NCBI GenBank assembly: GCA_026387385.1 | Contig: JAPLLU010000032.1 | Span: forward strand, 1 to 31,916 | Source of the DNA: Candidatus Omnitrophota bacterium | GTDB taxonomy: Bacteria > Omnitrophota > Gorgyraeia > Gygaellales > Profunditerraquicolaceae | Length of the DNA: 31,916 bases | Direction: 5' to 3' | In this document: one piece after another, positions 3,357 through 21,511 of the stretch | Layout of the letters: each line of letters opens with the position of its first letter | Position numbering within the stretch: the stretch's first letter is position 1 | Notes under the pieces: generated by a model | What the model was told of the DNA's origin: nothing | Seen by the model: only the letters and a program-made list of their open reading frames with translations | Database searches by the model: none | Made by a program: the position numbers and the translations under genes

Positions 3357-4730
3357 ATGAATAATCCAAAAAATTTGCCCATTGCTTTGGTGGTTGATGA
3401 TGAGCCAGCGGTCTTAGAAACCTTTGAGACTATTTTGGAGGGAAGGTTTGAGGTTCTAACCGCAAGGAGCGGTAAAGACGCCCTGGATAAGATAGCAAAG
3501 GAATCGATTAATTTGGTTTTCTTAGATATTGCTATGCCGGATATGGATGGCATGCAGGTCCTGCGCAAGATAAAGGAATACGATGAAAACCTGCCTGTAA
3601 TTATGGCAACAGCTACAGATAGCGCACGCAAGGCAGTTGAAGCAATGCAGCTAGGAGCCAGTAATTATATTACCAAGCCTTTTGATGTAGATGAGGTGAT
3701 AACAGTAGCCGAGAAGGCCCTAGAGCAAGATAAATTATTTAGAGAGGTAGTCTATTTCCGTTCTCAAAGAGAAGAGACTAAATTTGAGAATATTGTGGGT
3801 AAAAGCAAAAAAATAAGAGAAATATACGGCATAATTGAAAAGGTGATAAAGAACGATTCTACGGTCCTGGTATCCGGAGAAAGCGGGACTGGCAAAGAGT
3901 TAATCGCCCGGGCTATACACTTTAACAGCACCAGGAGACAAAAGCCATTTATACCCATTAATTGCGCTGGTATACCGGAAGCCCTATTAGAGAGCGAATT
4001 GTTCGGCCATGAAAAAGGAGCTTTCACCGATGCTATTAATCAGAAGTTAGGGATGTTTGAGCTGGCTAATGAGGGCACGCTCTTTTTAGATGAAATTTCC
4101 GGATTAAGATTGGGCGTGCAGGCAAATCTTTTAAGAGCCCTGGAGGAAAAAGAAATCAGGAGGTTGGGCGGCACAAAAATAATTAAAGTAGATGTGCGCA
4201 TAATATCCGCTACCAATGTTGACCTAAAACAGGCAGTAGAGGTAGGGAAGTTCAGAAACGATTTATACTACCGTTTGAATGTCGTACCCATACACCTTCC
4301 CGTTTTAAGGGAACGCCGAGAAGATATACCTTTATTAGTCGCCTATTTCTTGCAGAGGTATAATCAGCTTTTCAGAAAAAAGATAGAAGCTTTCACTAAA
4401 GAGGCTTTGGAATATTTGGTGAATTACGCTTGGCCGGGGAATGTAAGAGAACTCAAGAATGTCATAGAGCGGCTTGTAGCTTTAAGGGATGAAGGCGTGA
4501 TTACTTCCAAGGACCTGCCCTTTGATATTTTTATCAAGAGCGGCCTAGTAAGGGCTTTCCATGCCGAAGGCGGGCTCAAAGAAGCAAGTAAAGATTTTGA
4601 GAAGCAATACATAGAAGCAGTTTTAGAAAAAGTTAGGGGAAATCAAGTCAAGGCAGCTAAGATATTAGGAATACATCGCAATGCTCTTTTCAACAAGATG
4701 AAAAGCCTGGGATTAAAAAATAGTGAATAA
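3357..4730 (+). CDS. Sigma54-dependent NtrC-family response regulator (REC - AAA+ sigma54 activator - Fis-type HTH)
   Basis: Receiver domain (VVDDE, LDIAMPDMDG), Walker A GESGTGKE, the sigma54-contact loop ESELFGHEKGAFTDA (a GAFTGA variant), the Arg finger region and a C-terminal HTH (QVKAAKILGIHRNALFNKMK). Confidence 0.9.
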   Translation: MNNPKNLPIALVVDDEPAVLETFETILEGRFEVLTARSGKDALDKIAKESINLVFLDIAMPDMDGMQVLRKIKEYDENLPVIMATATDSARKAVEAMQLGASNYITKPFDVDEVITVAEKALEQDKLFREVVYFRSQREETKFENIVGKSKKIREIYGIIEKVIKNDSTVLVSGESGTGKELIARAIHFNSTRRQKPFIPINCAGIPEALLESELFGHEKGAFTDAINQKLGMFELANEGTLFLDEISGLRLGVQANLLRALEEKEIRRLGGTKIIKVDVRIISATNVDLKQAVEVGKFRNDLYYRLNVVPIHLPVLRERREDIPLLVAYFLQRYNQLFRKKIEAFTKEALEYLVNYAWPGNVRELKNVIERLVALRDEGVITSKDLPFDIFIKSGLVRAFHAEGGLKEASKDFEKQYIEAVLEKVRGNQVKAAKILGIHRNALFNKMKSLGLKNSE

Positions 4731-6591
4731 GAAATATCTAACCGCTAACTCCGCATGGGCTTTATTATTGGCTATATTCATTATCGGGATAATACATGCT
4801 CCGGTAGCGGCAGAAAACAGCAAAGAAATAGAATTACAAAAGATAATAGTAACTAACAGAAGAACACCTGTTGGCCTCAGTGAAACAACTGAAAATGTGG
4901 TGGTAGTTAATGAAGAAGAAATCAAGCAATTGCCCGCCAGGGATTTAAGCGAAGTCCTAAATTACATACCGGGTGTTTATGTTGAGCCAGGGCGCGGTTT
5001 TGGCCGTGCCACTTCCGTCAGTATTCAGGGGTCAGACTCCCGGCAAGTAAGGGTGATGATTGACGGCATACCTTTGAATACGCAAGCCTCAGGCCAGGTA
5101 AACCCCTCAAAATTCCCTATCGAAGACATAGCTAGGATAGAAGTAATTAAAGGTTCGGCTTCCAGCATCTGGGGCTCTGCCTTAGGAGGAGTGATAAACA
5201 TTATTACCAAGGATACGGGAAATTCATTAATACCGGAAGGTAGCATAACCAATACCTTTGCTGAATTCCGCACACAAAAACACAGTTTTGATTTATCCGG
5301 CAAAGCGCTAGGCCTTGGTTATTATATTTTCTCAAGTTATATGGAATCAGGCGGAAATGGGCCAAAGGATGATATTTTGGAGAAAAAGTCATTCGGTAAG
5401 CTATCCTATGATTTAGAAGAGCAGGGTAAAATTACCGGCTCCTTTGGTTTTAGCGAAGGAGATGTCAATAGCGGGGTGTTGCCGGATAATACCTGGGAAG
5501 CCCACCCCTACCGCTGCCAGTACGGCAAGGTTGGCTGGGAAGGGAATGTTAAAGATTCAAATATAAGAATAGATTTAAAGCGTTCCCGCCAGGATATAAT
5601 TTCCGATTATTTTCTTTCGGTTGACGATGAAGCCCCTTACCTAGCCATAAAATCTAAAGACCTGCTTTATCAGTTGAGTTTAAATTCCAGCACCCGCCTT
5701 AGAGGGAAAGACCTCTTGGTCTTGGGTGTTGATTTTGATTCTGATACCTTAAAGTCTACTTATCTTACCAAAGCAAAAAATTTAAAATTACAGGCGCCCT
5801 ATGCTAATTACAGTTTGAAATTAAATCCCTGGGATTTCAATTTTGGGTTGCGTTACGACCGTAATAGCGAATTCGGACAGGACATAAGCCCGTCATTCGG
5901 CTGCGTATACCATTTAGGCAGTAGGGAAGACACCTTAATAAGGCTTAATATCTCCCGTGCCTTTAACGCTCCGCCGCTATTGTGGAAGTATTATATTGAA
6001 AGCCTAAGCGGCCTTACCACTAACCCTGACCTTGGGCCTGAGCGCGCCATGGTTTATGAGTTGGGCTTGGAAAGTCAGCCTGTAGCCAGGGTATGGTTAA
6101 AACTTTCATTATACAAAGCAGATATTTCTGATGCTATCTCCAATGCCAAGAACCTAGAAGGCAAATGGATTAAAAAGAACTTTGAAGAATTCAGAAGGCA
6201 GGGAATAGAGGCAGAGGTTAGATTAAAACTATTTGAGGATTTAAGCTTTTTCGGCTCAGGCGCTTTTAATGATATTGAAAACAGGACAACAGGGGAAACT
6301 GTTAAAGACGCAGATAGCCCCAGGCAGTCTTTTGATTTAGGGTTTGAATATAAGAATAAGATAGGCACCTGTCTTTATATTAACGGCCGTTATGATTATT
6401 GGAACAAGACTTTTGATATCTTCCAGCCAAAAGACAGAAAATTCATCTTTGACCTTAAGGCCAGGCAAAAGGTCAAGAATCTCACCTGTTTTTTAAATAT
6501 CTACAATATCTTTGACAGCGAATACTGGTCAGATTTCTATAATCCCATCCCAAGAAGATACTTTGAAGGCGGCTTTTCAATCGATTGGTAA
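4723..6591 (+). CDS. TonB-dependent outer-membrane receptor (short, BtuB-sized)
   Basis: A signal peptide, a plug domain (ETTENVVVVNEEEIKQLPARDLSEVLNYIPGV, IRGSDSRQVRVMIDGIPLN), a beta-barrel and a C-terminal aromatic ending ...GGFSIDW. The GTG start overlaps the activator stop by 8 nt (GTGAATAA). Confidence 0.85.
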   Translation: MNKKYLTANSAWALLLAIFIIGIIHAPVAAENSKEIELQKIIVTNRRTPVGLSETTENVVVVNEEEIKQLPARDLSEVLNYIPGVYVEPGRGFGRATSVSIQGSDSRQVRVMIDGIPLNTQASGQVNPSKFPIEDIARIEVIKGSASSIWGSALGGVINIITKDTGNSLIPEGSITNTFAEFRTQKHSFDLSGKALGLGYYIFSSYMESGGNGPKDDILEKKSFGKLSYDLEEQGKITGSFGFSEGDVNSGVLPDNTWEAHPYRCQYGKVGWEGNVKDSNIRIDLKRSRQDIISDYFLSVDDEAPYLAIKSKDLLYQLSLNSSTRLRGKDLLVLGVDFDSDTLKSTYLTKAKNLKLQAPYANYSLKLNPWDFNFGLRYDRNSEFGQDISPSFGCVYHLGSREDTLIRLNISRAFNAPPLLWKYYIESLSGLTTNPDLGPERAMVYELGLESQPVARVWLKLSLYKADISDAISNAKNLEGKWIKKNFEEFRRQGIEAEVRLKLFEDLSFFGSGAFNDIENRTTGETVKDADSPRQSFDLGFEYKNKIGTCLYINGRYDYWNKTFDIFQPKDRKFIFDLKARQKVKNLTCFLNIYNIFDSEYWSDFYNPIPRRYFEGGFSIDW

Positions 6592-6600
6592 GAAAGGTTA

Positions 6601-6644
6601 TTTGTGCACAGGAGTGGTATTTGCACAGTTTTTTGTGCATATAA
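6601..6644 (+). promoter_or_regulatory. Candidate enhancer (UAS): three TGTGCA-type repeats
   Basis: TGTGCACA at 6603-6610, TTGCACAG at 6621-6628 and TGTGCATA at 6635-6642 lie about 90-130 bp upstream of the sigma54 promoter. The geometry and the palindromic GTGCAC-like sites are typical of NtrC-family enhancer-binding-protein sites. Confidence 0.5.
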
Positions 6645-6730
6645 AATCCGGCAGTTGTTAAGCGCGCTTTGCCATGAAGAAAAAATCCTACCGACGGTAT
6701 TTCATAGGAATTCTTTTTTCACTTAATCCT

Positions 6731-6746
6731 TGGCACAGAAGTTGCT
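6731..6746 (+). promoter_or_regulatory. Sigma54 (RpoN) -24/-12 promoter
   Basis: TGGCAC-AGAAG-TTGCT matches the consensus TGGCAC-N5-TTGCW with correct GG/GC spacing (GG at 6732-6733, GC at 6744-6745). It sits about 18 nt upstream of the SBP start. Confidence 0.7.
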
Positions 6747-6763
6747 TTTATAAAAGGTGAAAG

Positions 6764-8359
6764 ATGCGCGTAATTATATTTACCCTGCTCATTATGCTCA
6801 CACTTACCGTAACAGGAAACAAGGGTATAACCAAACAAGACAAACCTTATGGCGGAATCCTGGTTTGGGGCACGCGCAATAAGCCCACCATAATAAATCC
6901 TCTTTTTACTACCTCCAGCGTTTCTATGTCTTTGCTTGATTTGATATTTAACCGCTTGGTAAGAATAGGTTCAAAAGGCGAAATAGAGCCGGATTTGGCA
7001 GAATCTTGGGATATTTCTTCGGATGGCCTGGTTTATACCTTTTATTTAAGAAAAGGTGTCCGCTTTCATGATGGAGTAGAATGCACCGCAGACGATGTTA
7101 AATTTACTTATGAAAGTGTTATTAATCCAAAGAATAATTCGCCGTTTAATTCTCTCTTTGAATCGGTCAATGATTTTAAAGTAATTGACAAATATACCTT
7201 CCAGATAATCTTAAAGAAGCCATCATCACCGTTTATTTACAGGCTGGTAAGAGAAATAACCCCCAAACATATTCTTGAAGGGGCGGATTTAAGGAATTGT
7301 AATTTTAATTTTCATCCTATTGGCACGGGGCCATTCAGGTTTAAAGAATGGGGAAAGGACAACCAGATTATCTTAGAATATAATCCTGGTTATTATGAAG
7401 GAAGGCCTTATCTGGATAGGATTATTGTGAAAGTATATCCTGACTCCCGCGACCTCTGGACTGGTCTGATGCGCGGTGAAGTGGATTATGCCACATTTAT
7501 AGAGAGAGAGGATTATGAGGTGATTAGGGATGATCCGGCATTTAAAGCCTACGCCTTTCCCGTCGATATTTATTACGCTCTTTTTTATAATTTAGATGAC
7601 CCTTTATTAACTGATAAGAGGATTCGAGAGGCAATTGCTTATGGTATAGACAGAAAGGCATTGATAGAGAAGGTAGCTTATGGTTATGGTATGGAATGCG
7701 TAGGCCCTTTTTATCCTAAATCTTTAGGGTTTAATCCTGAGGTTTTACCTTTTGAATATAATCCGCAAAAATCACTTGAATTATTAAGAGAAGCAGGATG
7801 GAAGGATAAAGATAATGACGGAATCTTAGAGAAAAGGGGAGAAGAGTTAGAACTTAGGGTATTGGTTGACACAAGGAGCGAGATTTATCAAAGGATAATT
7901 ATGGCTATCAGGCAGCAACTGCAGCAGATTGGGATTAAGGTTAAGGTAATATTATATGATAATGAAGATATGCTTACCGAAGAATTCTTAAAAAATCTCA
8001 GAGTTCAAGCGCATCTAAAATTATTTATGGCTGGGCGTGCCGATGATATAGAAGAAGAATGGTATTCTAAGTACAAAAGAGGCGGTAAATTATGGGTTTA
8101 TGAAGATGAGGAAGTGAATAAGCTTTTTGAATTAGGAGAAATTAGTCAAGATAAGAAGAAAAGACAGGAAATATATCAAAAAATTAATCAGCTTATTTAT
8201 GAAAAACAGCCCGCCGCTTTTCTCTATTTTCCATTTGTTTTTCATGTTGTTTCTGCAAAACTCGCAAATACAAACGAATATTTTACCTTAAGCATGCCAA
8301 CTTATACGATGAAAGATTGGTATATGAGAGATAAAATAGAAAGCAAGTATTTTAAATGA
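6764..8359 (+). CDS. ABC-transporter substrate-binding protein, family 5 (peptide/nickel, Opp/Dpp-like); orphan, no cognate permeases nearby
   Basis: A signal peptide plus the family-5 signature region LAESWDISSDGLVYTFYLRKGVRFHDGVECTADDVKFTYESV, at 531 aa. No Opp/Dpp BCDF genes are in the window. Confidence 0.85.
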   Translation: MRVIIFTLLIMLTLTVTGNKGITKQDKPYGGILVWGTRNKPTIINPLFTTSSVSMSLLDLIFNRLVRIGSKGEIEPDLAESWDISSDGLVYTFYLRKGVRFHDGVECTADDVKFTYESVINPKNNSPFNSLFESVNDFKVIDKYTFQIILKKPSSPFIYRLVREITPKHILEGADLRNCNFNFHPIGTGPFRFKEWGKDNQIILEYNPGYYEGRPYLDRIIVKVYPDSRDLWTGLMRGEVDYATFIEREDYEVIRDDPAFKAYAFPVDIYYALFYNLDDPLLTDKRIREAIAYGIDRKALIEKVAYGYGMECVGPFYPKSLGFNPEVLPFEYNPQKSLELLREAGWKDKDNDGILEKRGEELELRVLVDTRSEIYQRIIMAIRQQLQQIGIKVKVILYDNEDMLTEEFLKNLRVQAHLKLFMAGRADDIEEEWYSKYKRGGKLWVYEDEEVNKLFELGEISQDKKKRQEIYQKINQLIYEKQPAAFLYFPFVFHVVSAKLANTNEYFTLSMPTYTMKDWYMRDKIESKYFK

Positions 8360-8372
8360 AAGGAGGTGAAAA

Positions 8373-8468
8373 ATGGAAGTGATTAGAAAAGGTTCAGACA
8401 ATGTGTCTAAGGTAGGTCCGCTTGGCTGTTGTTATCCGCCAGGAACCGAGAATCTTCGTGTAAGATAA
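8373..8468 (+). CDS. Unannotated 31-aa ORF MEVIRKGSDNVSKVGPLGCCYPPGTENLRVR; candidate RiPP precursor peptide
   Basis: Perfect SD AGGAGGTG 5 nt before the ATG, 13 nt after the SBP stop and about 100 nt before the rSAM/SPASM gene. It has a Cys-Cys-Tyr-Pro-Pro-Gly core. It is too short for the supplied ORF track. Confidence 0.55.
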   Translation: MEVIRKGSDNVSKVGPLGCCYPPGTENLRVR

Positions 8469-8484
8469 CAAAGTTAGCAAATGT

Positions 8485-8530
8485 TCCTTGCAGTAAAGCC
8501 CTGGGCGGCCGACCAGGGTTACTACAAGGA
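8485..8530 (+). promoter_or_regulatory. Long hairpin (attenuator/processing element) between the precursor ORF and the maturase
   Basis: TCCTTGCAGTAAAGCCCTGG-GCGGCCGA-CCAGGGTTACTACAAGGA forms a stem of about 19 bp with one G/A mismatch. It is not followed by a U-run, so it is not a full terminator. Confidence 0.6.
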
Positions 8531-8570
8531 AATTAGTTAGACAGCTCTAAAAGATTATTTTAAGGAGTAA

Positions 8571-9935
8571 ATGAAGATGAAATTATCCAGATTTAATCTA
8601 TGCGTAGAGAATTATCCTGAGCAGGGAGAGAATTTATTATTTAATACCCGCACCCAGGCCTTGATAAAGATAAATCCGGAATTAAAAGGCCTTCTGGATA
8701 GTCTAGAGAAACTAAAGGTAGAAGATTTAGGCTTGATAACAAGAGGGCATCTCGCTGCTTTAAAAGAAAACGGAATCATCGTAGAGGATGAAAATGAGGA
8801 AGAAGCCAAATTAAAGGACTTCTTCCGGCAGCTAAAATATGATTCCTCTTTTTTGCCTTTTGAGGTTACTATTCTTACTACCTATGCCTGCAATTTCCGC
8901 TGTGTCTATTGTTTTGAGGAGTCGGTCAAAGAAGATGTTTTTTTAGACAAGGAGACCAGTGATTTAATCATTAAGTGGTTAATCCAGAGGGCTGAGGAGA
9001 AAAAATTTAAACGCATCTTTTTAGTCTATTATGGCGGAGAGCCCCTCTTAAACATCAGGCCTATTTACGACATCTCCTGGCATATAAGAGAATGGGCGCA
9101 AAAAAAAGGAGTTGAGTTTGGCTTTGGGATTATTACTAACGGCAGCCTTATAAATCCCGACTTAATTGATAAATTTACTACCGTAGGCCTAAAAGATATT
9201 CGCATCACTATCGATGGAGATAGAAGCGAACATAATAAGAAGAGGCCTTTTTGTGACGGACGGCCAACCTTTGACCTGATTATCGATAATATCAAAAGCA
9301 TAATCGATAAGGTTAAGGTAGGGGTGGTGGGTAATTTTGACCGGGAGAATGTTGCAAGTATCCCCGGGTTCCTTGATTATTTAGAGAAAGAGGGGCTTCT
9401 TTATAGATTAGACCGTATTGATTTTGCTCCGCTATCCCCGCGCCTGGGCCCAAGGAGCAATCCCGGGGCAATTGAGCTGGCAGAGTGTTTATCCTTTGTG
9501 AGTAAAGACGGATTATTTAACGAAGTGCTGGCTGTTAAGAGAGAGTTAATGAGGCGGGGGATTAAGATTAGGACGGGTTTAGCCATTAACGCCTGCTCTT
9601 TGATTATGCAGGACGCAGCAGTGACTATTGACCCGGAAGGGTTAATCTATAAATGTAATTCTCTTGTAGGATATTCAGAGTTTTCCCTTGGTAATGTGCA
9701 GAGCGATGAATTTGAAGAGAAATCCAGGGAGTTTTTAAATATTGATGCCTGGGATAAATGCCCAATGGATTGCCCTTATATCCCTATGTGCCAGGGCGGA
9801 TGCCGTTTTTATTCCTATTTGGAAAATAATAATTTTTCTGATTTGTCCTGCAAGAGAGAGTATTTTGACCGCATTACCCCGGAGTTAATTAAGCTGGAAT
9901 ATCATAAACTACTCAGCGAAAAGAGTAGCTCCTAA
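8571..9935 (+). CDS. Radical SAM enzyme with a C-terminal SPASM domain (peptide-modifying maturase class)
   Basis: CxxxCxxC cluster in ACNFRCVYC, a C-terminal SPASM Cys cluster CPMDCPYIPMCQGGCRF plus an upstream CNSLVGY, and an N-terminal LFNTRTQALIKINPELKGLL stretch typical of peptide-maturase rSAM N-termini. Confidence 0.85.
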   Translation: MKMKLSRFNLCVENYPEQGENLLFNTRTQALIKINPELKGLLDSLEKLKVEDLGLITRGHLAALKENGIIVEDENEEEAKLKDFFRQLKYDSSFLPFEVTILTTYACNFRCVYCFEESVKEDVFLDKETSDLIIKWLIQRAEEKKFKRIFLVYYGGEPLLNIRPIYDISWHIREWAQKKGVEFGFGIITNGSLINPDLIDKFTTVGLKDIRITIDGDRSEHNKKRPFCDGRPTFDLIIDNIKSIIDKVKVGVVGNFDRENVASIPGFLDYLEKEGLLYRLDRIDFAPLSPRLGPRSNPGAIELAECLSFVSKDGLFNEVLAVKRELMRRGIKIRTGLAINACSLIMQDAAVTIDPEGLIYKCNSLVGYSEFSLGNVQSDEFEEKSREFLNIDAWDKCPMDCPYIPMCQGGCRFYSYLENNNFSDLSCKREYFDRITPELIKLEYHKLLSEKSSS

Positions 9936-9960
9936 GCTCATAAACTAATAAGCGCAAAGG

Positions 9961-11757
9961 ATGAGCAATTTAAAAGAGTTTTTAGCGCTTTTAAGGCCTT
10001 ACAAGAAACAAGTCTTCTTTACAATTTTAGCCATTCTTATAGCTAATCTGTTAGGCCTGGCTTTTCCTTGGGTTATTAAGATAGTTATTGATGAGATATT
10101 ACCTAAGAAGAATATATTTTTGCTTAATACCCTGGCAATAGCCCTAATACTTGTTTTTATTCTAAAATTTTATTTTGGGTATCTACGCGAGTATTTAATT
10201 TCTCTTATCGGAGAAAATGTAGTCTGCGATTTACGTAATAAACTCTATTGGCACCTGCAGAGATTATCGGTTAGATATATTGAGAATAATCCGACAGGAA
10301 AGATTATTTCAGGGGTTATCGGAGACGTAGAGAGCATTAGAAACTTCTTATTTGGGGGAGTGGTTGATTTTATCTATTCATTTTTTAACGTTTTTTTTGT
10401 CCTGGTTATTTTATTTATTTTAGACTGGAGGTTAACTTTAATTTCCCTTCTTTATCTACCTGCATTCGGCCTGGCCTTCTTTAAATTTACTCCGCGCCTA
10501 AAAAAGAAACACGAATTTATAAGAAACAAATACGCTGAGTTGACCTCAAGGTTAAATGAGGTATTTAACGGGATTCGCATAGTCAGCGGATTTGCCAAGG
10601 AGGAATATGAAGCAAATGAATTCAATTTCAAACAGAAAGAAATATTTAAAGCTTCTATGGGGAGCCATAAATTAGGAATTTTATTATGGATGTCATCCGA
10701 ATTTGTCAGTTCCCTGGGATTAGTTACGCTTATCTGGTTGGGAGCAAAGGCGGTTTTCTCCGGCCGAATATCCACAGGGACATTAATGGCTTTCTATTCC
10801 TATCTGGGCATGCTATTTTTTCCAATAATTAAGATGGTGATTATCAATAATTACTATCAGGAGGCAGCTGCCTCTTTAGAGCGCATTAATAAGGTATTAA
10901 CTGAAGAACCAAAGATAAAAGAGGCGAAACACGCGATTTCGCTCGACAGTATAAAAGGGAATATAAAGTTCGAAGATGTTAGTTTCGGTTATGATAATAA
11001 CAAGGAGGTTTTATCTGAAATTAACCTTGAGGTAAAAGAATCAGAGGTAGTAGCTTTAGTGGGTAAGAGTGGCGCAGGAAAGACTACCTTGTTAAATTTA
11101 CTTTTAAGGTTTTATGATACGACAAAAGGAGATATCTTTATCGATGGTTATAATCTGAAAGGCTTGGAATTAAAATCCTACCGCTCCAAGATCGCTATGG
11201 TTCTTCAGGACGATTACTTGTTTAGCGGAACAGTTAAAGAAAATATAATTTATGGCAAGTTAGGGGCTTCCAAAGATGATATAATAAAGGTGGCAAGATT
11301 AGCCAACGCTCATCAGTTTATTATGGAGTTGCCCGATGGTTACGATACGCAGATTGGTGAGCGAGGGATTAAATTATCTTACGGTCAGAGACAGAGGATT
11401 TCTATCGCCAGAGCCATATTACGAGACCCGGCAATTTTAATTTTAGATGAAGCTACCTCTTCTGTGGATTCAGAGACCGAACGTTTAATCATTGAACAGG
11501 CTTTTGAGAAATTAATGAGTGGCCGCACTACCCTTATGGTTGCGCATAGGCTTTCTACAATAACCCATGCCGATAAGATTGTTTTTATTGAAGGCGGAAA
11601 GATAGCTGAGACGGGAGGGCACTTTCAGCTGCTGGATAGAAAAGGAAGTTATTGGAAAATGTGGCTTGAGCAGGTTCGGGCTACAAACTGCAAATTGCAA
11701 TCTAGAAGTTATACACTCGAAAGCAAAGATTTTAAAACAGGGAGCTTAAATATCTAA
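9961..11757 (+). CDS. ABC exporter, fused permease-ATPase (type I exporter, MsbA-like); no N-terminal C39 peptidase domain
   Basis: Six N-terminal TM helices, Walker A GKSGAGKTT, signature LSYGQRQR, Walker B ILILDEATS and an H-loop AHRL. Confidence 0.9.
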   Translation: MSNLKEFLALLRPYKKQVFFTILAILIANLLGLAFPWVIKIVIDEILPKKNIFLLNTLAIALILVFILKFYFGYLREYLISLIGENVVCDLRNKLYWHLQRLSVRYIENNPTGKIISGVIGDVESIRNFLFGGVVDFIYSFFNVFFVLVILFILDWRLTLISLLYLPAFGLAFFKFTPRLKKKHEFIRNKYAELTSRLNEVFNGIRIVSGFAKEEYEANEFNFKQKEIFKASMGSHKLGILLWMSSEFVSSLGLVTLIWLGAKAVFSGRISTGTLMAFYSYLGMLFFPIIKMVIINNYYQEAAASLERINKVLTEEPKIKEAKHAISLDSIKGNIKFEDVSFGYDNNKEVLSEINLEVKESEVVALVGKSGAGKTTLLNLLLRFYDTTKGDIFIDGYNLKGLELKSYRSKIAMVLQDDYLFSGTVKENIIYGKLGASKDDIIKVARLANAHQFIMELPDGYDTQIGERGIKLSYGQRQRISIARAILRDPAILILDEATSSVDSETERLIIEQAFEKLMSGRTTLMVAHRLSTITHADKIVFIEGGKIAETGGHFQLLDRKGSYWKMWLEQVRATNCKLQSRSYTLESKDFKTGSLNI

Positions 11758-11769
11758 CAGCAAGATAAT

Positions 11770-13548
11770 ATGAGACGCCAAAAGAGGCTAATAAAACGCT
11801 TTTTATTAAATTTCTTCTACCGTAAGTTGTGGGTAAGGATTGCGATTATATTACTTACGATAGTTACTATACCGGTAGTGCTTTTAGGAGTTTTACTGAT
11901 TAATACCTCTCAGAAAGCAGTGAGAAGCTCGGTATTAAATAACCATAAGCAGATTGTAATCAGGACAGCGGAGGAGATAGGATTATTTGTAAAAAAACCC
12001 CAGGATATCTTAAATATTACTGCGGCAATGCTGGGGATAGTTTATCCTGCGCCCTGGAAGCAAGAGACAGTGCTGGTAGAATTAGTCCTCAATCAGCCTA
12101 TTTTTATGCGTGCCGCTACTGTAGATTTATCAGGCGAAGAAATAGCTAGTTCTGAGTTAGGAAAGGCATTTGTTTGGGACATTCCCAAAGAGGCCTTAGA
12201 AGAAATAGAGGGAGGGAAAGTTTATATTTCTGAAGTCAAGATTTTAGATAACCATACCCCTTTTGTAACTATGGCTGTTCCGATTAATAAGATGGGCAGG
12301 AGGGTCGCAACGCTGATTGCCGAAGTTAATTTAAGAGGCATGTGGGATATCATAGATAACATCAGAATAGGTAATACGGGCAGGGCTTTCTTGGTGTCTA
12401 AGGGGGGAGTTTTAATAGCCCACCAGGACAAAAAGAGGGTGTTAAAGAATGAGAATATGATGGAGCAAAAAGAAGTCCAGTTGGTTTTAGCCGGTAAAAC
12501 CGATGCAGTGGAATTAGAGGATAAATTAGAAGGCAAGCTGATTAGCTCCTATGCCCCTATTCCTGGTTTAGACTGGGGGGTTGTCTTAAGGCAACAGCAG
12601 GATGAGGCCTATTTATTTTCTAAGGTAATGAAGATCCAATCCTGGATAATTATCATTTTTAGTGAACTAGTTGTTGTTTTAGTGAGCATTTTTATGTCCA
12701 AGGTCTTTGCCCGGCCAATTAAAACCCTGGCTTCCCGGATCAAAAGAGTAGCCGCAGGAGATTTAGACCATAAAATCAAAATAAAGATGCGCGATGATAT
12801 TGGAGAATTAATCAGGTCCTTTAACGATATGACCAAGAAGTTGAAGAAGGCCAGGCTTAACGAACGACTCTCGGCAATAGGAGAGGCAGTGGCGTGGATA
12901 ACGCATGAACTCAAGAATTCTTTAATATCTATAAAATCTTTCGTTCAATTATTTCCCCAAAGACATAAAGACGAAAAATTTGTGCATAAATTCGCTAAAT
13001 TAATACCGCAGGAGATTGAACGCCTGGAAGGCATGTTTAAAGAATTGTCTGATTTTTCTTCTCATTCAGAGCTAAAGTTAGCTAGAGTAAACGTGAAGGA
13101 AATAATAGACGGCGTTTTAGAAATAATGAAAGAGGGCTTGATAGAAAAGAAAATCAATATTAGCTACAATACTCAGAATGATAATTATTATATTCAAGCT
13201 GACCCAGAGAGGCTCAGAAGGGTTTTTATGAATTTGATAATTAATTCAGTAAATGCAATGCCAAACGGAGGCTTGCTTACAGTCTCCATAGGCTTAGGAG
13301 GCAATAAATATTCAGAGATCCCTGAATGCCTGGAAGTAAAAGTAACCGATACAGGCATAGGCATGTCTAGAGAAGCGCTGGATAAGATATTCGAACCCTT
13401 CCATACTACTAAGGACGGAGGCATGGGCTTAGGGCTTACCATAGGCCGCAAAATTATCGAACAGCACGGCGGGAATATTTATGCAGAAAGTGAAATAAAT
13501 AAAGGGACGACCTTTGTCGTAAGATTACCAGCAGGCATACTGAAATAG
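11770..13548 (+). CDS. Sensor histidine kinase (TM - about 245-aa periplasmic Cache-like domain - TM - HAMP - HisKA - HATPase_c)
   Basis: Two TM segments flank a large extracytoplasmic domain. The HAMP is at about 313-365, the H-box is ITHELKNSLISIKSF, the N-box is NLIINSVNAM, and DTGIGM and GLGLTIGRKIIEQHGG follow. Confidence 0.85.
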   Translation: MRRQKRLIKRFLLNFFYRKLWVRIAIILLTIVTIPVVLLGVLLINTSQKAVRSSVLNNHKQIVIRTAEEIGLFVKKPQDILNITAAMLGIVYPAPWKQETVLVELVLNQPIFMRAATVDLSGEEIASSELGKAFVWDIPKEALEEIEGGKVYISEVKILDNHTPFVTMAVPINKMGRRVATLIAEVNLRGMWDIIDNIRIGNTGRAFLVSKGGVLIAHQDKKRVLKNENMMEQKEVQLVLAGKTDAVELEDKLEGKLISSYAPIPGLDWGVVLRQQQDEAYLFSKVMKIQSWIIIIFSELVVVLVSIFMSKVFARPIKTLASRIKRVAAGDLDHKIKIKMRDDIGELIRSFNDMTKKLKKARLNERLSAIGEAVAWITHELKNSLISIKSFVQLFPQRHKDEKFVHKFAKLIPQEIERLEGMFKELSDFSSHSELKLARVNVKEIIDGVLEIMKEGLIEKKINISYNTQNDNYYIQADPERLRRVFMNLIINSVNAMPNGGLLTVSIGLGGNKYSEIPECLEVKVTDTGIGMSREALDKIFEPFHTTKDGGMGLGLTIGRKIIEQHGGNIYAESEINKGTTFVVRLPAGILK

Positions 13549-13566
13549 TGCTCAAAAGGGAGTAAT

Positions 13567-14214
13567 ATGCCGATAAAAATTATCTTAGCCGATGACCATA
13601 ATATGGTTCGCCAAGCCATAAGTGCCCTGCTTGAACAGGATACAGTGATAGAAGTTGTTGGCGAAGCAGCGGACGGTCAGGCAACGTTAGAGTTGGTCCG
13701 CAACAGTAGGCCTGATGTGGTCATCATGGATATTGCGATGCCGGATTTGAACGGAATTGAGACTACGCGTAGGATAATCAAGGAGTTTCCTGATGTAAAA
13801 GTGATTGCCTTATCAGTCCATTCTGAAAAGAAATTTGTTTTTCAGATGTTCAAAGCCGGAGCATCCGGCTATCTGCTCAAAGACTGTATTTTTGAAGAGC
13901 TACTTTCTGCTATTCAAGTTGTTATAAAAAACCAAATATATATATCACCTAAAATATCAAGTTCTGTAGTTAGGGACTATTTAGGCCAATCTGTAAAGAA
14001 TGATTTTAACGCATTTTCTGTCTTGACCAATAGGGAACGCGAAGTCTTGCAGCTTCTTACTGAAGGAAAAACCGCAAAGCAAATTGCTTCTATCTTGAAA
14101 ATAAGCGTAAAGACAATCGAGACGCACCGTAAACAAATCATGGATAAATTGAACATCCGCAGCATAGCCGAACTCACCAAATACGCTGTCCGCGAAGGGT
14201 TAACTTCTTTATAA
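13567..14214 (+). CDS. Response regulator, NarL/LuxR family (REC + LuxR-type HTH)
   Basis: ILADDHNMVRQ, DIAMPDLNG and a C-terminal REREVLQLLTEGKTAKQIASILKISVKTIETHRKQIMDKLN. It lies 18 nt after the HK. Confidence 0.9.
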   Translation: MPIKIILADDHNMVRQAISALLEQDTVIEVVGEAADGQATLELVRNSRPDVVIMDIAMPDLNGIETTRRIIKEFPDVKVIALSVHSEKKFVFQMFKAGASGYLLKDCIFEELLSAIQVVIKNQIYISPKISSSVVRDYLGQSVKNDFNAFSVLTNREREVLQLLTEGKTAKQIASILKISVKTIETHRKQIMDKLNIRSIAELTKYAVREGLTSL

Positions 14215-14447: not shown

Positions 14448-14747
14448 ATGGCTAATTTTAATGATGGATTATTTGGATCATTTACAGTTGCCAATAAAAT
14501 AGGGACATCTTTGGAAAGGTTACGTTATTGGGAGAATCTGGGCATACTGAAGCCAAATTATGTTCAGTGCGGTACGAGGCAATTTAAAAGATATTCCCAA
14601 GAAGATATTAATAAAGCCATATTAGTCAAGAAGTTGGTTGATGAGGAAAAATATTCTCTTGGGGGAGCGATTATGAAACTAAAGGAAAAGCTGCAGTCAA
14701 CAGAGAAAAGCCAAGACGAAGAAAAGAATTTCATACTTAAAGAATGA
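14448..14747 (+). CDS. Small MerR-family HTH protein
   Basis: FTVANKIGTSLERLRYWENLGILKP...GTRQFKRYSQEDI matches the MerR N-terminal winged helix, followed by a short coiled-coil tail. Confidence 0.6.
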   Translation: MANFNDGLFGSFTVANKIGTSLERLRYWENLGILKPNYVQCGTRQFKRYSQEDINKAILVKKLVDEEKYSLGGAIMKLKEKLQSTEKSQDEEKNFILKE

Positions 14748-14809
14748 GTTAAAGGAAGTATAAAGAAAAAAACTTAAACTACAATTTATAATTTCTGTTT
14801 TGATAGGTC

Positions 14810-17743
14810 ATGAAAATCCGTACTAAACTATATCTTTCGCTGTCCTTAACTATAATACTGTTCGGGATTATCTTTGTTGTCTACGGGTTTATTCAAAGAG
14901 AAAGTTTTGTTGGGCTCTTCATAAATGAAGCTCATGAGAAGGAAGTAATTTTTGACAAGATTCTAATACTTAAAGGAGCACCCTTAGAAACATTCACATT
15001 CGATTATTCTTATTGGGATGAGATGGTTAATTTTATTGCAAATGAAAATGAATCTTGGGCAAAAGAAATGATAAACACAAGTGTTCTTACAAACTATGGT
15101 ATTAATGCAATATGGTTATACAAAACCGATTATTCTCTTCTATATTCCATCGATAACTTAAAGGACAATGGTTTTAAAGAGGTTCCTTTGAATAAAGAAA
15201 TCATTAATAGTGTATTTTTGCATAAGCAGTTGTGTCATTTCTTCCTGAATACATCCAAAGGCTTGATGGAGATACGCGGAGCCACTATTCATCCAACACT
15301 TGACGTAGAGAGAAAAACTCCATCGCGAGGATACATATTTGCTGCAAAATTATGGGGTAAAGAGTACATTGATGAACTTTCTAGATTAATCGGTGGCACA
15401 ATACAGATCACAAACCCTGAAGAAAAAACAGTTGTAAGTAATCAGAGTCTAGAAAAGGCCATAATTACCTTTTCAAGAATATTAACTGATTGGAATGAAA
15501 CTCCGTTGATCCGTCTTAATATCCGGTTTGAGTCTTATGGTCTTAAAGAATTTAATCATATATTCAAACAGCGTTTTATCATTTTTATTCTTTTTGCAGG
15601 AAGTATTTTGGTTATTATTTTATTCATCTTTACACGTTGGATAAGCATGCCCCTACGAAAAATATCCTTCGCTTTAAATTCAAAAGACCCCTCTTACATA
15701 GCCAGTTTGAAGAGACACAATGATGAGTTTGGTGATATATTGCTAATGATTGAAAATTTTTTAAAGCAGGAGGAGATACTGCGCAAGAGTGAAGAACAAT
15801 TCCGTTTGGTGGTAGAAGAAACGGTTGATTATGCTATTTTTATGTTGGATTCTGATGGGCGCATTGTCAGTTGGAATAAAGGAGCAGAGCGCATTAAAGG
15901 ATATCGAGCGGGAGAGATCATTGGAAAACATTTTTCAGCCTTTTATACCAGTGAAGACATCCAACGCGGCAAGCCTGAAGAGGAACTGAAGAAAGCGAGG
16001 GTCGAAGGTCGGTGTGAAGACGAGGGATGGCGTGTGCGAAAGGATGGCTCGCAATTTTTAGCCAACGCAATCATTACGGCATTATATGATCAAGCCGGGA
16101 ACTTGCGTGGATTCTCAAAAGTAACACGCGATATCACCAAGCGTAAGAAATCAGAGGATGAACTGTATAGACTTAACCGTGCGCTTAAGACAATCAGTGA
16201 GTGTAACCAGACTTTAGTACGCGCTACTAATGAGAGTAACTTACTGCATGAGATATGTCGTAACCTTGTGGGAGTTGGCGGATATCGTTTGGCGTGGGTC
16301 GGCTTTGCTGAACAGAACGAAAAAAAGATTGTGCGTCCGGTGGCACAGGCTGGATATGAAGAGGGGTACTTGGAGAATTTAAACTTTACTTGGTCTGATG
16401 CAGAATTAGGCCATGGGCCAACAGGCACATCTATCAGAATGGGTAAAATTTGCATATGTAAGAACGTCCTAACTGATCCAAGGTTTGCTCCTTGGAGAGA
16501 TGAGGCGATTAAACGCGGTTATGCATCGTCTATAGCCCTTCCTATGACTGCCGAAGGACGGACCTTTGGCGCACTGAATATATATGCGGATGAGCTGGAT
16601 GCCTTTGATGAACAGGAGGTCAGTATGCTGGAGGAATTGACAAATGACTTGGCATACGGCATATTTGCATTACGTACTCATTCAGAACGCGAACAGGCCC
16701 AGGAATCATTGAAAAAACTTCACAGTGCAATTGAACAAACAGCGGATATCGTTGTTATAACTAATAAAGAAGGAGTAATTGAGTATGTTAATCCTGCATT
16801 TGAGAAAACAACAGGCTATGCAAAAGAAATAGCTATCGGCCAGACACCAAGAATTATTAAGTCTGGTAAGCACGATCAAAGATTTTACGAAATGTTATGG
16901 AAGACAATTCTTTCCGGCAACGTCTTCCGCGACACGCTCATTAATAGAAGGAAAAATGGTGAGTTCTATTACGCAGAAAAAGCCATCACGCCAATAATAG
17001 ACAAGGAGGGAAACATTACGCATTTTGTCTCAACCGATAAAGACATCACTGAACGCAAAGAAATAGAAAAAACTCAAAGACTCGCTCAGTTAGGAGAACT
17101 TGTCGCGGATATGGCCCATGAGGTAAATAACCCCCTCATGATTATCTCAGGAAACGCCCAGCTTTCCTTACTTGATGGAACGCTTAATGAAGAGATTAAG
17201 AGCAATCTTAAAATTATCCACGAAGAATGCAACAGGGCAAAGGATATTATTCAGAGGCTTCTTAAGTTCTCAAGGCCAAGCAAGGGTGAACGAAAGGGAA
17301 CAGATATTAATCAGAGTATCGAGTCTGTTACAAAGCTCATAGAACACCAATTTAGCTTAAGTAACGTAAAAATAAAGAAAGACTTAAAGTACGATCTTCC
17401 TGCCATAGTAATAGATGAAAAACAGATGCAGGAAGTATTTATGAATCTCTTGAACAACGCAAGAGATGCCATGCCTGAAGGAGGAGAGATTATCATCAAC
17501 ACATCTTTAGACGGCGAGTACTGCAAAATAGAAATGAAAGATTCCGGAGTTGGCATGGATGATAAAACCCTAGCCAGAGTGTTTGAGCCATTCTTTACCA
17601 CCAAAGAAAAAGGGACAGGCTTAGGGCTTTCTGTTTGCTTCGGGATCATAAAAGCCCATAACGGAAAAATAGAGTTTAAAAGCCAGTTGCAGAAAGGCAC
17701 AACTGCGCATATCTGGTTACCCATTAAAGCGGAAGGAGTGTAA
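14810..17743 (+). CDS. Large sensor histidine kinase (TM - extracytoplasmic domain - TM - PAS - GAF - PAS - HisKA - HATPase_c)
   Basis: PAS S-box FRLVVEETVDYAIFMLDSDGRIVSWNKGAERIKGY, a GAF domain (LLHEICRNLVGVGGYRLAWVGF...), a second PAS (IVVITNKEGVIEYVNPAFEKTTGY), the H-box MAHEVNNPL, then NLLNNARDAM, DSGVGM and GTGLGLSVCFGIIKAHNG. Confidence 0.9.
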   Translation: MKIRTKLYLSLSLTIILFGIIFVVYGFIQRESFVGLFINEAHEKEVIFDKILILKGAPLETFTFDYSYWDEMVNFIANENESWAKEMINTSVLTNYGINAIWLYKTDYSLLYSIDNLKDNGFKEVPLNKEIINSVFLHKQLCHFFLNTSKGLMEIRGATIHPTLDVERKTPSRGYIFAAKLWGKEYIDELSRLIGGTIQITNPEEKTVVSNQSLEKAIITFSRILTDWNETPLIRLNIRFESYGLKEFNHIFKQRFIIFILFAGSILVIILFIFTRWISMPLRKISFALNSKDPSYIASLKRHNDEFGDILLMIENFLKQEEILRKSEEQFRLVVEETVDYAIFMLDSDGRIVSWNKGAERIKGYRAGEIIGKHFSAFYTSEDIQRGKPEEELKKARVEGRCEDEGWRVRKDGSQFLANAIITALYDQAGNLRGFSKVTRDITKRKKSEDELYRLNRALKTISECNQTLVRATNESNLLHEICRNLVGVGGYRLAWVGFAEQNEKKIVRPVAQAGYEEGYLENLNFTWSDAELGHGPTGTSIRMGKICICKNVLTDPRFAPWRDEAIKRGYASSIALPMTAEGRTFGALNIYADELDAFDEQEVSMLEELTNDLAYGIFALRTHSEREQAQESLKKLHSAIEQTADIVVITNKEGVIEYVNPAFEKTTGYAKEIAIGQTPRIIKSGKHDQRFYEMLWKTILSGNVFRDTLINRRKNGEFYYAEKAITPIIDKEGNITHFVSTDKDITERKEIEKTQRLAQLGELVADMAHEVNNPLMIISGNAQLSLLDGTLNEEIKSNLKIIHEECNRAKDIIQRLLKFSRPSKGERKGTDINQSIESVTKLIEHQFSLSNVKIKKDLKYDLPAIVIDEKQMQEVFMNLLNNARDAMPEGGEIIINTSLDGEYCKIEMKDSGVGMDDKTLARVFEPFFTTKEKGTGLGLSVCFGIIKAHNGKIEFKSQLQKGTTAHIWLPIKAEGV

Positions 17744-18117
17744 TGAATAAAATTTTGGTAGTGGATGATGAGGAAAGAATTGTCGATATCACGGAAAAGT
17801 TCTTGAAGATGAACGGTTTTGACGTGGTCAAGGCCATAGGTGGAGAAGAAGCGATAAGGATTTTGTCAACTGATACGCAGATTGATCTGATGGTGCTTGA
17901 TATGAAGATGCCCAAAGTAAACGGCTTGGGCGTGATGCAAAAAAAAACAGAATTAGGCAAAAAGTTCCCGGTATTGCTTCTTACGGGTTCAATCGATGCA
18001 GAAAAGTACCTTGAGGTATTGAAAGATAAAGGTTTTACAGCAGAGGATATTCTTTACAAGCCGATTGATTTGTCTGTATTGCTGGAGAAGGTGAAGCAGA
18101 AATTAAACATTGCCTGA
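17743..18117 (+). CDS. Single-domain (CheY-like) response regulator
   Basis: ILVVDDEERIV, LDMKMPKVNG and a conserved Lys region. The start overlaps the HK stop (TAATGA). Confidence 0.85.
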   Translation: MNKILVVDDEERIVDITEKFLKMNGFDVVKAIGGEEAIRILSTDTQIDLMVLDMKMPKVNGLGVMQKKTELGKKFPVLLLTGSIDAEKYLEVLKDKGFTAEDILYKPIDLSVLLEKVKQKLNIA

Positions 18118-18140
18118 AGTGATGATTTTTAACGATAAGA

Positions 18141-19460: not shown

Positions 19461-19665
19461 AAACAAGAAGCGAGGGATGAATGCGAAGGAAGACCTGCTC
19501 GGCGGGATGTCACTAAATAGGCATGTTATTGTTGTCGGCGTGGCAATCAAGGTACCACGGCATGCCCGCGGGTTGTTTTCCATTAAATCAGCCAAGATCG
19601 CATAGGAATGGGTTGTGAAGCTTTAGCAAAAAGGTGAGCTCCGGTGACCTTGATTATTTCAAGAT

Positions 19666-20187
19666 GTGTCTTCTTACCAAAATCTTACTTTTGAGCATAA
19701 GAGAATGTATAATCAAAACGAAGATACCATAAAGTCTCTCATTGCGCAGTACCAACAGAGAATCTACGCATTGGTGCTGTACTTAGTTGGCCAAGACCAA
19801 GACAGGGCTTACGATATTTGTGCGTCAAGTTTTACCGAGGCAATACGGGAAAGCTCTTCCCTAGGGCAAAAAGAGGTCTTTTTACTCAGACTTATCGGTG
19901 TTACTGTAGAAAAGTGCCGAAATATAAAAACAATTCCAACTTTTGATGTAATTGAGCTTCTGGAGATTAGCGGGGCGGAAAAAGGGCAGCTGCTTATAGT
20001 ATTAAAGGCCCTGCAAACGTTAGACTTTGAGCTAAAAGTGCCCCTGTTCTTACGGTATCAATTTAATCTTTCTTACGGGGATATCGCAACGGTTATGCTG
20101 GTATCAGAGAGCGATGCCAGGATAAAAACCGCCCAGGCGCGTGCTCAACTGGACAAAGAAATTGAACGCATATTAAGCAATACTTGA
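19666..20187 (+). CDS. ECF-type sigma-70 family sigma factor (regions 2 and 4); GTG start
   Basis: Region 2-like IKSLIAQYQQRIYALVLYLVGQDQDRAYDICASSFTEAIR and region 4-like ALQTLDFELKVPLFLRYQFNLSYGDIATVMLVSESDARIKTAQARAQL. The codon at 19666 is GTG. The first in-frame ATG is codon 14 (ATG 19705-19707). Confidence 0.75.
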   Translation: MSSYQNLTFEHKRMYNQNEDTIKSLIAQYQQRIYALVLYLVGQDQDRAYDICASSFTEAIRESSSLGQKEVFLLRLIGVTVEKCRNIKTIPTFDVIELLEISGAEKGQLLIVLKALQTLDFELKVPLFLRYQFNLSYGDIATVMLVSESDARIKTAQARAQLDKEIERILSNT

Positions 20188-20196
20188 GGGGATGAT

Positions 20197-20703: not shown

Positions 20704-20720
20704 AGCTCTGGGGATTAATT

Positions 20721-21488: not shown

Positions 21489-21511
21489 ACGTTATAAGGA
21501 AGGAAGAATTT

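Follow-up and report, generated by a model that had tools for sequence, protein, structure and literature searches.

A candidate self-sensing radical SAM peptide cassette in Omnitrophota, with related gene sets in other diderm phyla

Gene organization

The 31,916-nt contig JAPLLU010000032.1 of a Candidatus Omnitrophota bacterium (assembly GCA_026387385.1), referred to here in its full length as the window, contains a cassette in which the genes for a 31-amino-acid (aa) precursor peptide, a radical S-adenosylmethionine (rSAM)/SPASM maturase, and an ATP-binding cassette (ABC) exporter are linked to those for a TonB-dependent receptor, an orphan periplasmic substrate-binding protein (SBP), a dCache sensor kinase, and two regulators (Table 1). 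That this cassette represents a real, widespread, and apparently undescribed system is well supported, and no description of the gene combination was found in the searchable literature. All positions follow the numbering of the 31.9-kb window, and all cassette genes lie on the + strand. From the SBP gene onward, through the peptide, rSAM, exporter, kinase, and regulator genes, the successive intergenic gaps measure 13, 102, 25, 12, and 18 nt. Six co-directional open reading frames (ORFs) had been described in an earlier note on this DNA; their coordinates agree exactly with the present analysis, and the domain identities assigned there to the SBP, rSAM enzyme, exporter, kinase, and regulator are upheld by Pfam and NCBIfam. 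The unit starts at 3357 instead of at 6601, where that note placed its beginning, having overlooked the TonB-dependent receptor gene (4723-6591). The end of the activator gene overlaps the GTG start of the receptor gene by 8 nt, which places both in the same unit.

Table 1. Features of the cassette (window numbering)
Feature	Position	Strand	Evidence
NtrC-family sigma54 activator (receiver (REC), AAA+ Sigma54_activat, HTH_8)	3357..4730	+	Pfam/NCBIfam
TonB-dependent outer-membrane receptor (Plug and 22-strand barrel, BtuB-sized, signal peptide)	4723..6591	+	Pfam, solved-structure match
Enhancer-like TGCACA repeats: half-site TGTGCACA 6603-6610 and inverted repeat 6618-6627/6634-6643	6598..6646	.	
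Sigma54 -24/-12 promoter TGGCAC-N5-TTGCT	6731..6746	+	exact consensus match
Orphan periplasmic family-5 SBP, signal peptide	6764..8359	+	PF00496
Precursor peptide gene, 31 aa, MEVIRKGSDNVSKVGPLGCCYPPGTENLRVR	8373..8468	+	conserved ORF
Conserved RNA hairpin (core 8484-8531, apex CTGGGCGGCCGACCAG 8501-8516)	8474..8540	+	folding, covariation
rSAM/SPASM peptide maturase, N-terminal RiPP recognition element (RRE)-like domain	8571..9935	+	HMMs, fold
ABC exporter half-transporter (ABC_membrane and ABC_tran)	9961..11757	+	Pfam/NCBIfam
Sensor histidine kinase: transmembrane segment, dCache_1 (~51-272), transmembrane segment, HAMP, HisKA, HATPase_c	11770..13548	+	Pfam/NCBIfam
LuxR/NarL-type response regulator (REC and GerE)	13567..14214	+	Pfam/NCBIfam

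The comparison set consisted of three long contigs and 78 metagenome loci, the latter retrieved by a metagenome scan with an rSAM alignment, and was analyzed by tblastn with the window proteins. Two groups of loci are distinguished: type A, comprising about 50 loci at 56-82% rSAM identity, and type B, comprising loci at 33-39%. A genome-contig scan with the single rSAM protein returned only one distant match, in Bdellovibrionia.

Precursor peptide and its maturase

The ORF encoding MEVIRKGSDNVSKVGPLGCCYPPGTENLRVR has a strong Shine-Dalgarno sequence, AGGAGG, 7 nt 5' of its ATG, confirming what the earlier note had described as a perfect site. A small ORF occupies the gap between the SBP and rSAM genes in essentially every homologous locus with enough upstream sequence, and 40 aligned peptides yield the consensus ME(V/I)I(R/K)KGSD-x(6-9)-CC(F/Y/W)PxG(T/S)xxxR. 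Across these homologues, C19, C20, P22, and G24 never vary, an aromatic residue always fills position 21, and M1, E2, G7, and R29 are at least 90% conserved. On comparative sequence grounds, the 31-aa ORF is thus regarded as a real gene; the possibility raised beforehand, that it would not be conserved at homologous loci, does not apply, as it is kept in about 40 of them. The peptide has no match among NCBIfam families even at E <= 10, the presence of a geopeptide precursor model in that release being unconfirmed, and this absence of a precursor match bears out the earlier view that the core GPLGCCYPPG belongs to no recognized class. In an exact look-up, the window peptide was not among the called proteins of the public collection, and the public record of the window lacks this ORF. 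The few homologues that are called remain unnamed or are listed as "hypothetical protein". The central gene of the cassette thus escapes automated annotation. Its products form an unnamed family of precursors in which the Cys-x-aromatic motif is invariant and which may carry a crosslink not yet described.

The maturase contains the CX3CX2C cluster motif (C107-x3-C111-x2-C114; PF04055, 53.7 bits), which is invariant in 23 homologues, together with seven likewise invariant SPASM cysteines for two auxiliary [4Fe-4S] clusters (C342, G357-x4-C362, C397-x3-C401-x5-C407-x3-C411, and C427). In its AlphaFold model (pLDDT 86), the barrel is preceded by strands at residues 9-13, 21-25, and 31-34 and helices at 36-43, 55-66, and 74-90. 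Judged from this model, the N-terminus is an RRE-like domain of three strands and three helices, of the kind found in enzymes that make peptides synthesized by ribosomes and modified after translation (RiPPs). The best fold matches are CteB, followed by TigE, anSME, ChlB, and SuiB; CteB (5wgg/5why) is matched over the full length (E = 1.8e-19, TM-score about 0.68) and is also the sole solved relative by sequence (1e-18), at approximately 20% identity. The protein is 100% identical to one that NCBI names only "SPASM domain-containing protein", and more than 120 cluster representatives occur at 56-95% identity, nearly all of the named ones being Omnitrophota.

All NCBIfam scores of this enzyme lie below the curated cutoffs: TIGR04280 geopeptide maturase, 286 bits (cutoff 400); CefB (NF038107), 215 (600); Clo7bot, 167 (600); TIGR04463, 166 (525); PapB, 131 (340); DynA, 105 (450); QhpD, 82; and the anaerobic sulfatase maturase (TIGR03942), 74 (349), the last over radical SAM core residues 104-245 only. 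An anaerobic sulfatase maturase is ruled out by that low and partial score, and the concern that the enzyme might fit a non-peptide family does not apply, as peptide-maturase families score best. A Cys-every-fifth system of the CefB type was also set aside, the score reaching 215 of 600 bits and the peptide having two adjacent Cys only. In the earlier note, the gene arrangement was taken as a hallmark of sacti/ranthipeptide- or darobactin-like clusters; the first comparison fits the CteB-like maturase, whereas the second fails on the DynA score and on a core without a W-x-W-x-K-type motif. From the invariant cluster cysteines, the sub-cutoff scores, the relation to CteB, and the RRE-like model, it follows that the enzyme is a leader-dependent peptide maturase of the thioether-synthase neighborhood that stands outside every named family. 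The biosynthetic half of the cassette accordingly adds a new branch, so far unnamed, to a known class of enzymes.

Among known systems, the geopeptide system is closest, since TIGR04280 is the top curated family, with full-length alignment, both for the window enzyme and for the distant relatives tested (231-329 bits), and since it likewise pairs a short peptide with an rSAM/SPASM enzyme. Unlike its members, no sequence tested reached the 400-bit cutoff, and the peptides match no NCBIfam model. TIGR04280 is itself a computational "hypothetical equivalog", for which no experimental characterization was found in the searchable literature. The enzymes of the group formed by CteB/SCIFF, PapB, CefB, TIGR04463, and Clo7bot likewise have an RRE at the N-terminus, a radical SAM barrel, and a SPASM domain for two auxiliary clusters, and they act on short Cys-containing precursors. 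They differ in that identity is about 20%, their cutoffs are widely missed, and their precursors carry multiple spaced Cys rather than two adjacent ones; moreover, CteB-type systems do not include a TonB receptor, an SBP, and a dCache kinase in their gene context.

Distribution across loci and phyla

Type-A loci share the order [NtrC] - TonB receptor - SBP - peptide - rSAM - ABC exporter - dCache kinase - [regulator], brackets marking genes of variable presence. The receptor lies within the cassette in every type-A locus with enough flanking sequence and is the most constant accessory gene; in three loci it has moved 3' of the kinase gene, still inside the cassette. The exporter is found in most type-A loci and is not in the cassette in L020/L022 and L055. 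In the long contigs compared, the cassette is surrounded by housekeeping genes and not by mobile DNA.

Type-B cassettes (L062-L079, L082, L084-L086; e.g., L073 5952-11000) are arranged as NtrC - sigma54 promoter - rSAM - peptide - SBP5 - dCache kinase, usually without a receptor and with no exporter. Their rSAM genes come from Syntrophobacterales/Thermodesulfobacteriota, "Deltaproteobacteria", Nitrospirota, and Nitrospinota metagenome-assembled genomes. Three further contexts uphold the order rSAM - peptide - SBP5 - dCache kinase, which in one Nitrospirae locus is joined by NtrC and a TonB receptor. Type-B peptides, exemplified by MRLQIVKKGSKGDKKILWCWWYLYR, MKLQVIKKGTRKDDKKTLYCAWFVST, MKLQIVKKGERKIKSKPSFCGWYAR, and MKIKIIKKGVKKENIKMNWCEWSYW, are about 25 aa long and follow the pattern MK(L/I)x(I/V)(I/V)KKG...aromatic-C-x-aromatic, with a single Cys and no His; none matched NCBIfam. 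Common to both types are a hydrophobic-KKG leader and the Cys-x-aromatic motif, which takes the form C-C-[F/Y/W] in type A. Because type B keeps only the peptide, rSAM, orphan SBP, and dCache kinase genes plus the usual NtrC gene and sigma54 promoter, the invariant core of the superfamily is, as far as comparative sequence can tell, this set of four genes.

The conservation described above bears on the idea that the genes are chance neighbors, or the small ORF spurious, and that the rSAM enzyme acts on a protein encoded elsewhere. The public record of the window, with no call for the 31-aa ORF, is what speaks for it. The invariant residues in 40 loci, the recurrence of the gene set in more than 50 loci and several phyla, and the lack of a match to the sulfatase-maturase family all speak against it; ORF and gene-set conservation already refute it, and we give it next to no chance of being correct.

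Two further features of type-B loci were observed. In L086 (Nitrospinota), a class-I methyltransferase gene (9722-10621) lies between the peptide and SBP genes, which suggests an extra tailoring step in that lineage. Several type-B loci also have a second sigma54 site 5' of the NtrC gene itself.

RNA hairpin and sigma54 promoter

The 102-nt gap behind the peptide gene is filled by a hairpin, as the earlier note had proposed, with a folding energy of -33.2 kcal/mol (z = -3.9), and none of 200 shuffled sequences folds as well. With few exceptions, the loci have a stable hairpin directly 3' of the peptide gene, and among 22 aligned hairpins, 10 of 15 consensus pairs show compensatory changes. Neither the hairpin nor the operon leader matched Rfam. 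An intrinsic terminator was considered and rejected, as no T-tract follows the hairpin and a terminator scan did not report it. In RiPP operons, hairpins behind the precursor gene are known to set message ratios; by analogy, the hairpin described here may act by stabilization or attenuation, so that the SBP-peptide message exceeds that of the enzyme genes.

The apex of the hairpin deserves separate mention. Its 16-mer YTGGGCGGCCGACCAR (8501-8516) is identical in the window and 18 loci, occurring once per locus, and this identity exceeds what structure alone requires. The loci concerned have 20-40% protein divergence, the 16-mer is seen only in the subgroup with a sigma54 promoter, and as DNA it is nearly palindromic.

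The 31.9-kb window has a single exact match to the sigma54 consensus, TGGCACAGAAGTTGCT (6731-6746), upstream of the SBP gene; it presents the -24 GG and -12 GC elements at the correct spacing and ends 17 nt before the SBP start codon. Farther upstream lie TGTGCACA (6603-6610) and an inverted repeat, TATTTGCACA (6618-6627) and TGTGCATATA (6634-6643). This TGCACA...TTGCACAG-N6-TGTGCATA layout, placed just after the receptor stop codon, recurs in orthologous loci, and we take the TGCACA repeats to resemble NtrC-type TGCAC half-sites. A canonical promoter, upstream repeats, and an NtrC-family activator encoded in the window (3357-4730), all named in the earlier note, have thus each been located. 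The activator has AtoC as its best NCBIfam match, at 454 bits and below the cutoff, and LuxO is among its matches at 1e-108.

An NtrC gene is present 5' of the TonB receptor gene in about 15 homologous loci, and a strict sigma54 match occurs approximately 30 nt 5' of the SBP gene in 20, one per locus. Two distinct NtrC-carrying loci have no strict match, namely L005/L011 (one contig) and L039, and no strict match was found in the loci shown to lack the NtrC gene. In the loci without this gene, the gap between receptor and SBP genes is mostly 20-46 nt, except in L034. By this sequence comparison, activator gene and sigma54 promoter mostly co-occur across loci.

Between the enhancer repeats and the -24 element of the window lies a small palindromic CCG-A-CGG box, TACCGACGGTA (6689-6699), which is conserved in position in L012, L015, L017, L027, L041, and L052. 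This box could be a site for the second regulator of the cassette or for a bending protein.

Periplasmic and signaling proteins

The SBP matches PF00496 at 309 bits and scores below the NCBIfam cutoffs for NikA, Opp4A, CntA, and DppA. NikA, Opp5A/NikA, and CntA are among its best matches, and its scores for the peptide binders Opp4A and AppA are just as high; of the solved structures, AppA (1xoc, 1.6e-66) is nearest, and NikZ (4oet) is also matched in the Protein Data Bank (PDB). The protein is co-conserved with the rSAM enzyme and the kinase in all architectures. An inner-membrane permease adjoining the SBP gene was found in none of the loci examined, in keeping with the earlier description of an Opp/Dpp-like SBP without permeases. 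The receptor, of 622 aa, is closest to BtuB, its nearest solved structure (8e-21 over its full length), and to siderophore or heme receptors. The exporter contains no C39 peptidase domain.

The dCache kinase is present in every architecture. It is not a hybrid kinase, having no receiver domain, and no Hpt gene is present. Its core is nearest to those of AtoS and ZraS, whose partners are sigma54 activators; this likeness suggests that the kinase signals to the NtrC-type regulator, and perhaps it also signals to the adjacent LuxR- or AraC-type regulator. A regulator with REC and GerE domains occurs in the window, L007, L014, and L041 only (orthologues at 61-70% identity), whereas most other loci encode a REC protein with an AraC-type helix-turn-helix domain after the kinase (e.g., L002 14984-15724 and L004 15029-15808), and some orthologous loci have no regulator there. 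The LuxR-type regulator is therefore the least conserved part of the cassette. Of the dedicated kinase/LuxR-type regulator pair envisaged in the earlier note, both genes exist, but the NtrC-type regulator is at least as likely a partner of the kinase, and the LuxR-type protein is variable.

Possible functions and resemblance to known systems

The reading that we prefer, with a probability of roughly 0.5, is that of a self-regulated RiPP cassette, in which a crosslinked peptide is exported, re-imported, bound by the SBP, and read by the kinase, and the system is driven by its sigma54 promoter. In such a scheme, the RRE-like domain of the maturase would bind the conserved N-terminal ME(V/I)I(R/K)KG leader, and the enzyme would install one or more crosslinks at the C-C-aromatic-P-x-G core, by homology most likely thioethers of Cys sulfur. 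The hairpin would keep the SBP-peptide message more abundant than the enzyme message, and the ABC exporter would move the product out of the cytoplasm. The TonB-dependent receptor would return peptide from the medium across the outer membrane, whereupon the permease-less SBP would bind it in the periplasm and present it to the dCache domain of the kinase. Phosphorylation of the NtrC-type regulator by the kinase would then lead to binding at the TGCACA repeats and firing of the sigma54 promoter, closing a positive, density-dependent loop, while the second regulator (LuxR-type here, AraC-type elsewhere) would carry the output to other genes.

Pairs and triads of this kind are known from other contexts: the kinase ChiS is paired with a family-5 SBP, the chitin-oligosaccharide binding protein, and in AioX/AioS/AioR an SBP, a kinase, and a sigma54 regulator make up a triad. 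Self-sensing is favored because the SBP and kinase are constantly paired with the peptide and maturase, because no inner-membrane importer lies beside the SBP in any examined locus, and because the activator gene is linked to the promoter. The produce-export-sense circuit suggested in the earlier note gains support from the four-gene core staying together across several phyla. A further reason is the precedent of LuxP-LuxQ-LuxO in Vibrio, where a membrane kinase forms a complex with an orphan periplasmic binding protein and the signal is passed on to a sigma54-dependent regulator (PMC8895600). Unlike in the cassette, the signal in that case is autoinducer-2 and not a peptide, and neither a TonB receptor nor biosynthetic genes belong to the same operon. 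LuxP also belongs to an SBP family other than family 5, and LuxQ is a hybrid kinase that uses LuxU. The likeness to LuxPQ/LuxO is thus one of analogy, not of membership.

Several points weigh against this scheme. The cassette encodes neither an outer-membrane exit for a peptide of about 3 kDa nor a leader protease, and the exporter is not in the cassette in a few type-A and all type-B loci. Approximately 40% of type-A loci are without the NtrC gene and sigma54 promoter, so feedback through sigma54 does not apply to all of them. The SBP could function in uptake together with a permease whose gene lies elsewhere, the combination of TonB receptor and SBP is equally typical of nutrient or metallophore uptake, and it is common for dCache domains to bind a small ligand directly, with no SBP involved. 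Moreover, a TonB-dependent transporter can also serve export, as Oar does in Myxococcus, so that the receptor may transport in either direction.

The missing exit route is accommodated if the crosslinked peptide travels to the periplasm only, where it would serve the SBP as a stable subunit or cofactor, the complex receiving another ligand via the TonB receptor and the kinase signaling its arrival. A parallel exists in quinohemoprotein amine dehydrogenase, which has a crosslinked small subunit produced by an rSAM/SPASM enzyme and a dedicated ABC transporter for its export, and QhpD is among the family matches of the window enzyme (82 bits). Matched high co-production would suit a gene order in which the SBP gene comes first, with the peptide gene 13 nt later and before the hairpin, and in type-B loci the peptide, rSAM, SBP, and kinase core occurs without receptor or exporter. 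The argument is nevertheless purely architectural and no second ligand is indicated, and type-B loci are without even the exporter that a periplasmic partner requires, which together make this explanation improbable.

Uptake of a metal is the next alternative to the self-sensing scheme. In methanobactin operons, the precursor is encoded together with a TonB-dependent transporter and periplasmic binding proteins, and regulation by the returning product has been proposed (PMC3621798). The cassette resembles them, in architecture only, by encoding a ribosomal peptide together with an exporter, a TonB importer, and a binding protein without an obvious permease. It differs in that MbnB/MbnC are not rSAM/SPASM enzymes, the exporter there is of the MATE type and here of the ABC type, and regulation is by a sigma/anti-sigma pair there and by a dCache kinase with a sigma54 activator here; no feature of the cassette suggests a metal, and no methanobactin-binding protein appeared among the solved-structure matches of the SBP (E <= 1e-20). 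By a methanobactin-like logic, the secreted peptide would capture a metal such as Ni, Co, or Cu and return via the receptor, a NikA/CntA-like SBP would hold it, and the kinase would sense the loaded form and induce the operon. Receptor, SBP, exporter, and precursor are indeed set out as in methanobactin operons (PMC3621798), NikA, Opp5A/NikA, and CntA are among the top NCBIfam matches of the SBP with NikZ (4oet) in the PDB, the peptide has two invariant Cys, and the receptor is nearest to BtuB and siderophore/heme receptors. The SBP, however, fits the peptide binders Opp4A and AppA equally, AppA being the best solved match and all named families far sub-cutoff. The cassette has no metal-responsive regulator or permease, and MbnB/MbnC-type genes are absent from both cassette and window. 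In addition, the peptides of other phyla have a single Cys and no His, and the nearest enzyme families use up Cys thiols in thioethers. A peptide metallophore is consequently judged unlikely, while still deserving consideration; if true, it would represent a new class of ribosomal metal scavenger in anaerobes.

Lantibiotic clusters such as that of nisin offer another comparison, in which the two-component system NisK/NisR senses the mature peptide and a hairpin behind the precursor gene sets the precursor:enzyme ratio. The cassette resembles them as a RiPP operon with a two-component system and a hairpin after the precursor gene. Unlike it, they belong to Gram-positive bacteria with no outer membrane, TonB receptor, or SBP co-receptor, and they use different enzymes and sigma70 promoters. 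An autoinduced antimicrobial RiPP of this kind would be a bacteriocin sensed by the kinase and regulators to raise its own output, with the SBP and possibly the exporter protecting the producer. Precursor, maturase, ABC exporter, and two-component system make up the classic gene set, and the products of the nearest enzyme families are sacti- and ranthipeptides, in several cases with antimicrobial activity. It would be unexpected, though, for an operon to include an outer-membrane importer of its own toxin, and among the accessory genes that of the receptor is the most constant; across divergent genomes the very short core is near-invariant, unlike the diversifying cores of warfare peptides; and the cassette sits among housekeeping genes, not in mobile DNA. 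We therefore consider an antimicrobial role quite unlikely.

A wider version of the self-sensing scheme can be put forward tentatively, as a possibility less probable than the scheme itself: peptide cell-to-cell signaling may be widespread in uncultured anaerobic diderms of the phyla Omnitrophota, Thermodesulfobacteriota, Nitrospirota, and Nitrospinota. The signal would be a peptide of about 25-35 aa with a new rSAM crosslink at the universal Cys-x-aromatic motif, perceived in Omnitrophota by way of a TonB transporter, a periplasmic SBP/dCache-kinase pair, and a sigma54 activator. Peptide signaling is regarded as a Gram-positive habit; to our knowledge, very few ribosomal peptide signals have been described in outer-membrane bacteria, and none with a TonB-dependent transporter and an SBP co-receptor. 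If true, this version would imply both a new RiPP class and a new route of peptide sensing across the outer membrane. By linking a peptide, its maturase, a binding protein, and a sensor kinase in several little-known phyla, the cassette offers a ligand, a receptor, and a promoter that can be tested as a set. Omnitrophota are uncultured and often tiny or host-dependent, and for them it would be among the few lineage-wide systems with a concrete hypothesis.

Neighboring genes in the window

Thirteen kilobases downstream of the cassette, on the - strand, an efflux operon (26933-31105) encodes a MacB-type ABC transporter, an HlyD-family adaptor, and a TolC-like outer-membrane factor and is the only outer-membrane exit route in the window. 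It was considered as the missing exit for the peptide and set aside; as it is not conserved beside the cassette in other loci, it is probably unrelated.

The interval 14448-21877 is a dense run of signaling genes encoding a MerR-like regulator, a 977-aa multi-PAS kinase, a single-domain receiver, a second kinase, an extracytoplasmic function (ECF) sigma factor with a zf-HC2 anti-sigma factor, a double-receiver protein, and another receiver. At the other end of the window, genes for tRNA-Pro(TGG) and tRNA-Arg(TCT) (729-804 and 879-955) are followed by a thiamine pyrophosphate (TPP) riboswitch (1389-1498; 57.5 bits, threshold 54.3) ahead of a gene for a Thi4-type sulfide-dependent thiazole synthase (1562-2335), all of which are ordinary.

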